The translations under genes were made by a program, and so were the position numbers. The notes under the pieces are model-generated. The model saw nothing but the letters and a program-made list of their open reading frames with translations, was not told the origin of the DNA and did not search any database. From Nitrospirota bacterium (GTDB lineage Bacteria; Nitrospirota; Thermodesulfovibrionia; Thermodesulfovibrionales; Magnetobacteriaceae): a stretch of DNA of 64,000 bases. Positions within the stretch are counted from its first letter, which is position 1, and each line of letters starts with the position of its first letter. The DNA lies in the NCBI GenBank assembly GCA_015233725.1, contig JADFXD010000006.1, positions 5,848-69,847 on the forward strand, in the 5' to 3' direction. Of this stretch, positions 1,235 to 3,236 are shown one piece after another.

Positions 1235-1256
1235 ACACAGACCCGCAAAAACAGGA

Positions 1257-1276
1257 CAGGGGCGTGTCAGCCCCTG
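1257..1276 (-). other. GC hairpin CAGGGGC-6nt-GCCCCTG downstream of the DUF1566 gene (terminator-like or DGR target hairpin)
   Basis: Perfect 7-bp stem 37 nt after the stop at 1314, between convergent genes. Confidence 0.6.
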
Positions 1277-1313
1277 CACCCAGGAAAAGACAAATAACCC
1301 AATAACCACAGAA

Positions 1314-3236
1314 TCAATGTCCTAAACGTACTGGCCAAACATAGATGAGGCCAGACTTGAAGTCGTTATACACGTGGCCGTTGGACATGTCGACGTCCCA
1401 TGCGTAGGATGTATTGTTAACGATGGGAGTAGACGACCAGTAGCTGTACGATTGCACATTTGTAAACCCCGACGACGTAAACGATGATACAAGATCAACC
1501 GCCTGACCGTTACAATAAAAGTTTTGGCTAGTGCCATTGACAATTGCATCTAAGCCTGTAGTAGACCCATCCATCCTGCAAAGACTATACAACTCCTGTA
1601 TAGTTGGTAGTCGCCATCCTGAGGGCATACAGGTAGAGGCCTGATCCCACGTCACACGGCCACAACCGTTAGTGTTTTTCATCCACTGCAGATTGGTAAG
1701 TGTGTCCGTCATTGAGCCGTCACCGTTATCCTTAAACCTCGCTGTGGGTGTAGGCGTAGGTGTTGGTGTGGGCGTTGGCGTCGTTGTACCAGAGCGAACT
1801 GGCCATACGTAGAAGTTGTTGCCCTTGCCGCCGGCGGTTATGTAGCCATCGAACATGCTAATATCCCACGCGTAGAGCGTACTGTTAGCAGAGGTAGTAG
1901 CGGACCAGTAGTAGTTCGATTGCACATTTGTAAACCCCGCAGACGTAAACGATGATGCAAGATCAACCGCCTGAGCGTTACAATACCCGTTACCAGTACC
2001 GTTTAGTATTGCATCCAAACCTGTCTGAGACCCATCCGTCCTGCAAAGGCTATACAACTCCTGCATAGTTGGAAGTCGCCATCCTGAGGGCACACAGGTA
2101 GAGGCTTGATCCCACGTCACCAGGGCACAGGGGTTAGCATCCTTCATCCACTGCAGATTGGTAAGTGTGTCCGTCATTGAGCCGTCACCGTTATCTGTAA
2201 ACCTCTTACCACCTGGTGTCGGAGTTGGCGTAGGTGTTGGTGTGGGCATTGGCGTCGTTGTACCAGGTTGCCAATCTGAAGACATACCATGAACTACAAA
2301 ACCTCCACCTGAGATTGTAAGTCCATTCATAAGCCACACGACAACATCGCCCGTTGTGGTGTCTTGCCAGAGGATATCAGCCTTGCCATCGCCATTATAA
2401 TCTCCATCTGTCAACAGCTTCCAGTTACCTGGCATTGCTCGTACCACGTAGTTGCCGCTAATTATCTTGGCCCCATCCATCAGCCATGCGGCAGTATCAC
2501 CAGTTGTGGTGTCTTGCCACAGGATGTCGGCCTTGCCGTTACCGTCAAGGTCATCAACCGCCTTTACCTGCCAGTTACCTGGAATGCCCTTGGCAACTAA
2601 TCCACTTCCTCCTTGTATATTGACCCCATCCATGATCCAGACGTAGACGTCACCACCAGTGTTTTGCAAAAGGACGTCGCCCTTGCCATCCCCGTTAAAA
2701 TCAGCCACTGCCTTGACCGTCCAATCTGATGACAGACCCTTCACTACAAGGCCTCCACCATTTATCTTGGTTCCATCCATCAGCCACAGGGCAACGTCGC
2801 CAGTTGTGGTGTCTTGCCACAGGATGTCTGCCTTGCCATCCCCGTTAAGGTCGCCTGTCCCCTTGAATGACCACTCCTTTGGCAAACCATGTATGACAAA
2901 ATCACCACCTGTTATCTTTGTACCATCCATAAACCAGATGTAGACGTCACCGTTAGCGTTTTGCAATAGGACATCGGCCTTATTATCACCATTGAAGTCT
3001 CCTGTGCCCTTGATTACCCAATCAGTTGGTAATCCCTTAACTGCAAAGTCACTACCTTTTATTGCCATCCCATTCATCAACCATATAACGACGTCTCCTG
3101 TCTTGGTGTTGCGCCAGAGTACGTCGCTCTTGCCATCGCCGTCAAAATCATTTATCGCCTTGCTGTAGGCGTTTGTCGCCGTACATAGAACCAACGCCAA
3201 TAACAGCAGCCACATCTTGATTATACTTCTTCTCAT
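1314..3236 (-). CDS. Secreted FG-GAP/VCBS-repeat protein with Pro/Thr linkers and two DUF1566 (Lcl C-terminal, CLec-fold) domains; candidate DGR target
   Basis: Signal peptide; six DFxGDGKxDILWQ repeats; (PT)n linkers; two 'FxDNGDGSMTDTLTNLQW…GWRLPTxQEL…YWSxT…AW…YVWPVR' domains. Confidence 0.9.
   Translation of the reverse strand: MRRSIIKMWLLLLALVLCTATNAYSKAINDFDGDGKSDVLWRNTKTGDVVIWLMNGMAIKGSDFAVKGLPTDWVIKGTGDFNGDNKADVLLQNANGDVYIWFMDGTKITGGDFVIHGLPKEWSFKGTGDLNGDGKADILWQDTTTGDVALWLMDGTKINGGGLVVKGLSSDWTVKAVADFNGDGKGDVLLQNTGGDVYVWIMDGVNIQGGSGLVAKGIPGNWQVKAVDDLDGNGKADILWQDTTTGDTAAWLMDGAKIISGNYVVRAMPGNWKLLTDGDYNGDGKADILWQDTTTGDVVVWLMNGLTISGGGFVVHGMSSDWQPGTTTPMPTPTPTPTPTPGGKRFTDNGDGSMTDTLTNLQWMKDANPCALVTWDQASTCVPSGWRLPTMQELYSLCRTDGSQTGLDAILNGTGNGYCNAQAVDLASSFTSAGFTNVQSNYYWSATTSANSTLYAWDISMFDGYITAGGKGNNFYVWPVRSGTTTPTPTPTPTPTPTARFKDNGDGSMTDTLTNLQWMKNTNGCGRVTWDQASTCMPSGWRLPTIQELYSLCRMDGSTTGLDAIVNGTSQNFYCNGQAVDLVSSFTSSGFTNVQSYSYWSSTPIVNNTSYAWDVDMSNGHVYNDFKSGLIYVWPVRLGH

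Follow-up and report, generated by a model that had tools for sequence, protein, structure and literature searches.

Tandem Lcl_C domains of a secreted Candidatus Magnetobacterium protein with probable relic variable regions of a diversity-generating retroelement

A stretch of 64,000 nt from contig C27 (positions 5848-69847, hereafter the window) was analysed in a metagenome-assembled genome (MAG) of Candidatus Magnetobacterium (G000; 3.32 Mb, 168 contigs, 88.6% complete). The window contains a gene for a secreted FG-GAP protein with two tandem Lcl_C (DUF1566) domains, and the 45-codon tails of these domains are probably relic, or 'orphan', variable regions (VRs) of a diversity-generating retroelement (DGR). 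Judged from sequence comparison, this reading is given a probability of about 0.65. The tails, designated VR1 (domain 1) and VR2 (domain 2), carry the codon footprint of adenine-specific mutagenesis. The same genome holds a DGR on another contig, and both tails mismatch the template repeat (TR) of that element. From this we infer that the C-terminal ligand-binding segments of the Lcl_C family would once have received their sequence through adenine-specific mutagenic retrohoming from an AAC-rich TR, a process that would randomise codon positions 1-2 and retain the third base of the template. A tandem domain duplication would have come first, after which each tail would have gained its own binding-site residues and both would have left the reach of the DGR. 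Drift would have followed at the non-adenine sites and in the 3' anchor, so that the present TR could not rewrite the tails. The present protein may belong, as a fixed member, to a hard-wired set of binders that are secreted or surface-displayed; it would combine a beta-propeller with two differing C-type-lectin-like heads.

Codon footprint of the tails and of the paralog family

Codon alignment of both domains (positions 1326-1451 against 1794-1919) revealed 22 non-synonymous codons in the tails. With one exception (ATA/GTG) the third base of these codons is a pyrimidine in both copies, and in 13 of them it is C in each; these counts are exactly those of the initial annotation, which had been made from the sequence alone. 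The identical framework stretch of about 50 nt reported there was found to be 53 nt long. The divergence of the 42-codon tails described in the annotation was also recovered, but the segment homologous to the template is slightly longer, comprising 45 codons and beginning at AATGTGCA (NVQ). The domains differ at 13.4% of framework bases and at 34% of bases within the final 45 codons, and non-synonymous codons account for 22 of 42 in the tail against 16 of 95 upstream (Fisher p = 5e-5). Given the third-base usage of the gene (1314-3236), the probability of at least 21 of 22 codons being pyrimidine-ending in both copies is about 2e-11. At the 14 AAY columns of the TR, all 28 window codons are NNY. 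At its AAC columns 21 of 22 window codons end in C, while 8.1 are expected from an amino-acid-matched control based on framework codon usage (0/20,000 simulations). The AAY codon footprint that had been proposed as DGR-type is confirmed by these values.

The footprint is shared by a large family. With 70 matches to PF07603 on about 40 contigs, the 3.3-Mb genome shows an extreme expansion of this domain, and footprint statistics were calculated for 49 of the paralog domains, with active targets excluded. Thirteen of the 14 AAY columns hold 10-16 different amino acids each, column 1 staying Asn. Of the third bases at the AAY columns, 68% are C and 90% are pyrimidines. Lys, Glu, Gln, Met and Trp, the codons of which require a purine as third base, make up 4.6% of residues at these columns compared to 23% in conserved columns. 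At column 16, where the template reads AAT, the ratio of T to C is 38:5, against 74:399 at the AAC columns (p = 8e-23). The third base tracks the template across the family, and codon bias is ruled out as the cause, since neighbouring columns differ in their third bases although they hold the same amino acids. The tail footprint is family-wide and very probably DGR-derived.

Some features of the two tails would fit a history in which no DGR ever took part, point mutations under diversifying selection having driven the paralogous lectin loops apart and the pyrimidine endings reflecting amino-acid or codon bias. VR1 and VR2 differ at 46 sites which are spread over the three codon positions as 18:14:14, and these differences show only a slight excess at TR adenines (19/42 against 27/93 non-adenine sites, p = 0.08). 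Both features count against a DGR origin. In principle, third bases could also be spared under very strong positive selection on positions 1-2. A history of this kind is nevertheless improbable in view of the amino-acid-matched control, the switch from C to T exactly at the AAT column of the template, the near absence of Lys, Glu, Gln, Met and Trp, and the presence in the same genome of a DGR directed at just this segment of the domain.

The template on contig C29 and its mismatch with the tails

For identification of the template, every Lcl_C domain was compared with the whole genome and for each mismatch it was asked which side holds A. The TR was found on contig C29 of G000 (C29:3487-3621; 135 nt) and contains 42 adenines and 14 AAY codons. 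Its translation from column 4 is SNNYWSSTSYANNTSNAWIVNMNDGNVNANDKSNNNYVWPVR, which agrees at 34 of 42 residues with the template translation predicted beforehand. Three VRs correspond to this TR. Mismatches fall at template adenines in 16 of 16 cases for C29:2788-2922, in 20 of 20 for C29:4245-4379 and in 20 of 21 for C14:41619-41753, which lies on a separate contig. These active TR-VR pairs are 84-88% identical, and the last ~24 nt, an anchor resembling the initiation of mutagenic homing (IMH) element (TACGTTTGGCCGGTTCGTTCTGGA), are common to the TR and all three VRs. The C29 sequence is a genuine DGR template, of whose three targets two are adjacent and one is on a separate contig. The locus (L031, C29:2323-7379) consists of target A (203 aa), a bAvd-like open reading frame (ORF) just 5' of the TR (C29:2892-3320, outside the window; PF22296, E 2e-9, 38.3 bits against a cut-off of 40), the TR and then directly target B, a protein of 1191 aa with Lcl_C, BACON and FG-GAP domains. 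No reverse transcriptase (RT) gene is included; in relatives this gene comes immediately after the TR.

Both window tails align to the TR gap-free. VR1 shows 37 mismatches, 17 at the 42 adenines and 20 at the 93 non-adenine sites; VR2 shows 42, with 19 and 23 in these classes. At the same 93 sites the true VRs have 0, 0 and 1 mismatches, and all other paralogs have 11-46 (12%-54%), leaving a clean gap from the active VRs. In the 3' anchor each window tail carries 3-4 mismatches. Non-adjacent DGR targets have been described as having 'only A-to-N differences, allowing minor exceptions' (PMC5758913), and the window tails fall outside this description. Because they carry 20 and 23 non-adenine mismatches against 0-1 in true VRs, the tails are outside the current targets of the C29 TR. 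Consequently, the proposal that the window protein is a remote (trans) target of a DGR elsewhere in the genome was right as to the DGR but not as to present targeting: the TR lies by a bAvd-like ORF, as anticipated, while the assembly provides no RT and the tails mismatch the TR.

Comparison with Candidatus Magnetobacterium casense MYR-1 (G001) clarifies the arrangement of the C29 locus. This genome has two DGR cassettes, on contigs C10 and C3, with differing templates TR1 and TR2 (138 nt). The gene order there is target A, avd, TR, RT, a small ORF and target B, and the TR sits in the same open frame as the RT. The avd-TR part is 91% identical to that of the G000 cassette. Homology of G000 ends about 30-40 nt past the TR and resumes at target B after about 125-135 nt, so that relative to Ca. 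M. casense about 2.4 kb including the RT are missing. The RT could be missing through a deletion or through mis-joining of the MAG. A deletion would have to be very recent, since the three VRs show no decay. At the RT-less junction (C29:3710-3783) a dispersed repeat of ~70 nt with an internal palindrome (TTCCTGCTTAAGCAGGAA) is located, which looks like a repetitive extragenic palindromic (REP) or miniature inverted-repeat transposable element (MITE). Five copies of it occur in G000 and many more in other Candidatus Magnetobacterium genomes.

Ca. M. casense, with intact RTs, also illustrates how VRs may age. At least four of its VRs have 0-2 non-adenine mismatches to TR1, two of them on other contigs, and TR2 has an active target beside it, with 13 mismatches at adenines and 1 elsewhere. 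The remaining VR-like ends form a graded series of decayed sequences. Over all VR-like ends the non-adenine mismatches to TR1 run 0, 1, 1, 2, 4, 5, 5, 7, 8, 10 and onwards to 21, which fits VRs repeatedly leaving the DGR system and then drifting. The window tails lie mid-range in the equivalent distribution of G000. Between the two explanations offered in the initial annotation for the synonymous third-position differences, a fossilised VR fits best; two different templates are possible, the assembly being incomplete and without an RT.

Possible missing templates, possible recombination and the case against a relic

Several observations weigh against the tails being relics. Synonymous differences between the tails affect 8 of 23 identical-residue codons, compared to 10 of 76 in the framework (p = 0.03). 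Relative to the TR, third bases differ at 1/14 and 2/14 of the AAY columns but at 12/31 and 15/31 of the other codons in the two tails (p about 0.04 for each). The better-kept AAY third bases together with the excess of synonymous differences hint that the present TR was not the template from which the tails were written, and that they have not simply decayed from it; the other templates could still exist. No DGR RT was found in the 88.6%-complete assembly, where PF00078 gave no match even at E <= 10, an absence that is not proven. A tblastn search with the RTs of relatives, including the DGR RTs of Ca. M. casense, returned only TR/VR-like segments in G000. DGR parts can be absent from this assembly whether the RT was deleted or mis-joined; with an incomplete assembly and no RT, further parts may likewise be lacking. 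The nearest homologues in the protein collection reach 47% identity across both domains and 68% across a single domain.

These points lend some weight to the possibility that VR1, VR2 or both continue to be rewritten in trans from one or two further TRs which, together with an RT, would be situated in the unassembled ~11% of the genome or in an unbinned element. The RT is missing although the true VRs are undecayed, so essential parts would be either unassembled or very recently lost. Ca. M. casense and Ca. M. cryptolimnobacter (G002) each possess two avd-TR cassettes, and the genus uses remote VRs. The 3' end of VR2 (GGCCAGTACGTTTAGGACATTG) is nearer to the TR2-type anchor of Ca. M. casense, and NNC third bases are better kept than those of scaffold codons. 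Against this, 27 of 93 non-adenine sites differ between the tails, which would call for two extra, mutually divergent templates. An avd-TR query found only the C29 cassette in G000, yet detected cassettes of 79% identity in relatives. No TR-like partner came to light in the 22 family genomes, in the JGI contigs (VR2 pattern only) or in IMG/VR. Present activity of the tails is therefore regarded as unlikely, though likelier than a history free of DGRs.

The searches behind this judgement covered the assembly, its relatives and public collections. A second TR was not found in the assembly, where the C29 sequence has 14 AAY codons and every other copy has at most 6. Within the 22 family genomes searched (G000 included) there was no partner more than 77% identical to either tail. 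In the pattern scans for TR or VR variants, N was allowed at the presumed adenine-derived sites. The scan of JGI metagenome contigs, made with the VR2 pattern only, gave no TR/VR partner and two GC-rich, unrelated chance matches; that of IMG/VR, made with both tails, gave no match. An exact look-up of the window protein in the protein collection gave no entry, and no sequencing run containing the locus was listed.

Several candidate templates or partners were considered and rejected. TR2 of Ca. M. casense is one codon longer and has 19-22 mismatches at 93 non-adenine sites to the window tails; some TR2-type states, the ...VRLGH* tail among them, recur in VR2 but do not suffice for a TR2 target. 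Compared with the templates of genus g6 (G009), 11 of 29 VR2 mismatches lie off the template adenines. The VR-only fragments on C97, C73, C120 and C147 have at most 5 AAY codons each, against 14 in the TR. The closest paralog, on C128, is without a sharp VR boundary, its identity declining gradually from ~90% to 62%.

A different source of tail diversity would be exchange among the ~70 paralogous cassettes by segmental recombination or gene conversion, similar to antigenic variation and without retrohoming. A pair of Lcl_C domains in neighbouring genes on C160 (73929-74306 and 75514-75894) could be taken in this sense: the first 188 nt are identical and the first ~250 nt of framework contain 6 differences, while the tails show about 30 differences, including non-NNC codons, which begin exactly at the start of TR homology. 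In this pair the whole VR cassette appears to have been replaced after a very recent duplication. Lcl_C fragments that are truncated or comprise the VR only (C97:19773-19979, C73:6210-6374, C120:28105-28338 and C30:13894-14223) would also fit such exchanges; some have in-frame stops and none is AAY-rich, and they are probably pseudogene remnants of former targets. For the window tails themselves no long identical tract is shared with any other copy: exact matches do not exceed 19 nt and fall in scaffold codons, the best full-length match being 77%. Recombination also leaves the template-tracking third bases unexplained, and is considered very unlikely as the origin of the tails.

A broader, still speculative option, in which the DGR acts as an engine of gene-family growth, is raised by the graded non-adenine mismatches of Ca. 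M. casense (0 to 21) and by third bases that track the template in the 49 paralogs. VRs would be written, duplicated and released, giving about 50 frozen lectin heads per genome. Alternatively, the two heads of the window protein would still be rewritten in trans by extra, unassembled templates, which would give the genus a DGR network of multiple templates and many targets.

Gene architecture and relation to known DGR targets

The gene encodes 640 aa and is preceded by a Shine-Dalgarno sequence (AAGGAG) 8 nt 5' of its ATG. Its features are listed in the table below. The description of the product as a secreted FG-GAP/DUF1566 protein with two tandem domains was borne out by Pfam, with Lcl_C (PF07603) detected in two stretches of the protein (E 1.4e-40, 138.6 bits against a cut-off of 34.9), FG-GAP repeats above threshold (PF01839 at 70.1 bits and PF13517 at 64 bits; FG-GAP E 1.3e-19), and by a signal peptide predicted from the translation.

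Table. Features of the Lcl_C gene and its surroundings (window coordinates)
Feature	Position	Strand	Basis
Gene, FG-GAP / 2x Lcl_C secreted protein, 640 aa	1314..3236	-	ORF list, sequence, Pfam
Predicted Sec signal peptide (MRRSIIKMWLLLLALVLCTATNAYS)	3162..3236	-	Reading of the translation
Six FG-GAP/VCBS-type repeats, likely beta-propeller	2262..3155	-	Pfam FG-GAP and FG-GAP_3; repeats visible in translation
Pro/Thr linker 1	2208..2267	-	Translation
Lcl_C (DUF1566) domain 1	1791..2204	-	Pfam; genome-wide PF07603 scan match C27:7641-8024
VR1-like segment, 45 codons colinear with the DGR template of the genome	1794..1928	-	Within domain 1
Pro/Thr linker 2	1740..1793	-	Translation
Lcl_C (DUF1566) domain 2, C-type-lectin-like fold in model	1326..1739	-	Pfam, AlphaFold2, Foldseek
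VR2-like segment, 45 codons colinear with the DGR template of the genome	1326..1460	-	Within domain 2
Intrinsic-terminator-like hairpin and T-run	1256..1277	-	~40 nt past stop codon

An AlphaFold2 model of domain 2, built with an alignment of 31 paralog domains, reached a mean predicted local distance difference test (pLDDT) score of 88.9 and a predicted template modelling (pTM) score of 0.83. Foldseek placed the C-terminal domain of Legionella Lcl (8q4e) as the top PDB match (probability 1.00, TM-score 0.50-0.55), followed by animal C-type-lectin-like domains (CTLDs). The Legionella domain and domain 2 belong to the same Pfam family, although sequence identity is 19%. Legionella Lcl is a collagen-like adhesin and not a DGR target. 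A sequence search of the PDB with both Lcl_C domains gave only WD-repeat matches, which were judged spurious. The C-type-lectin-like model agrees with the earlier assignment of DUF1566 domains with this fold to a class of DGR targets, for which published support exists (PMC5758913).

In the survey of Wu et al. (2018, PMC5758913), DUF1566-type C-type-lectin domains make up ~14% of DGR targets and are typified by LdtA of Legionella pneumophila (category 'd'). Like targets of the LdtA class (DUF1566/CLec2), the window protein is secreted, has its variable segment in the C-terminal ~45 codons of the Lcl_C domain, shows the codon footprint of an AAY template and shares its genome with an avd-TR cassette. 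It differs from them in having two tandem domains on an FG-GAP propeller, in tails that lack a cognate TR (20-23 mismatches at 93 non-adenine sites) and in an assembly that lacks an RT. Seven non-adjacent targets are known for the DGR of Treponema denticola (PMC5758913). The system described here resembles it in being a chromosomal DGR of a genus with VRs on other contigs (C14 in G000; C39 and C8 in Ca. M. casense), but true remote targets match their TR outside adenines and the window tails do not.

DUF1566 targets, remote targets and DGRs in Candidatus Magnetobacterium are already known, the genus being named in a list of DGR-bearing taxa by Roux et al. (bioRxiv 10.1101/2020.04.01.020958); the terms 'DUF1566' and 'paralog' do not occur in the main text of that preprint. 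What sets this locus apart is that it is a template-less copy within a very large DGR-imprinted family. DGR surveys call targets by template match only, while this locus shows a far larger set of paralogs with the same imprint and without a template. If the tails are indeed relics, DGRs leave a readable fossil record and would contribute, beyond transient hypervariation, to the permanent expansion of surface-binder families in uncultured magnetotactic Nitrospirota. For annotation, an NNY-codon footprint alone is no proof of an active DGR target.

The Lcl_C domains of G000 are mostly arranged as tandem pairs, with up to four in one open frame of 1120 aa (C23), and are often fused to FG-GAP, BACON or InlB-B-repeat domains. 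Downstream of the stop codon of the window gene, a repeated motif resembling GGTTATTTGG is present at positions 1290-1313 (tggttattgggttatttg). The same motif occurs 3' of the stop codon of DGR target A (C29:2935-2965; ggttatttggtattttggttatttgg), and similar stretches follow the ends of other Lcl_C genes (C72, C73 and C119). The motif may be a remnant of the junction between target and avd.

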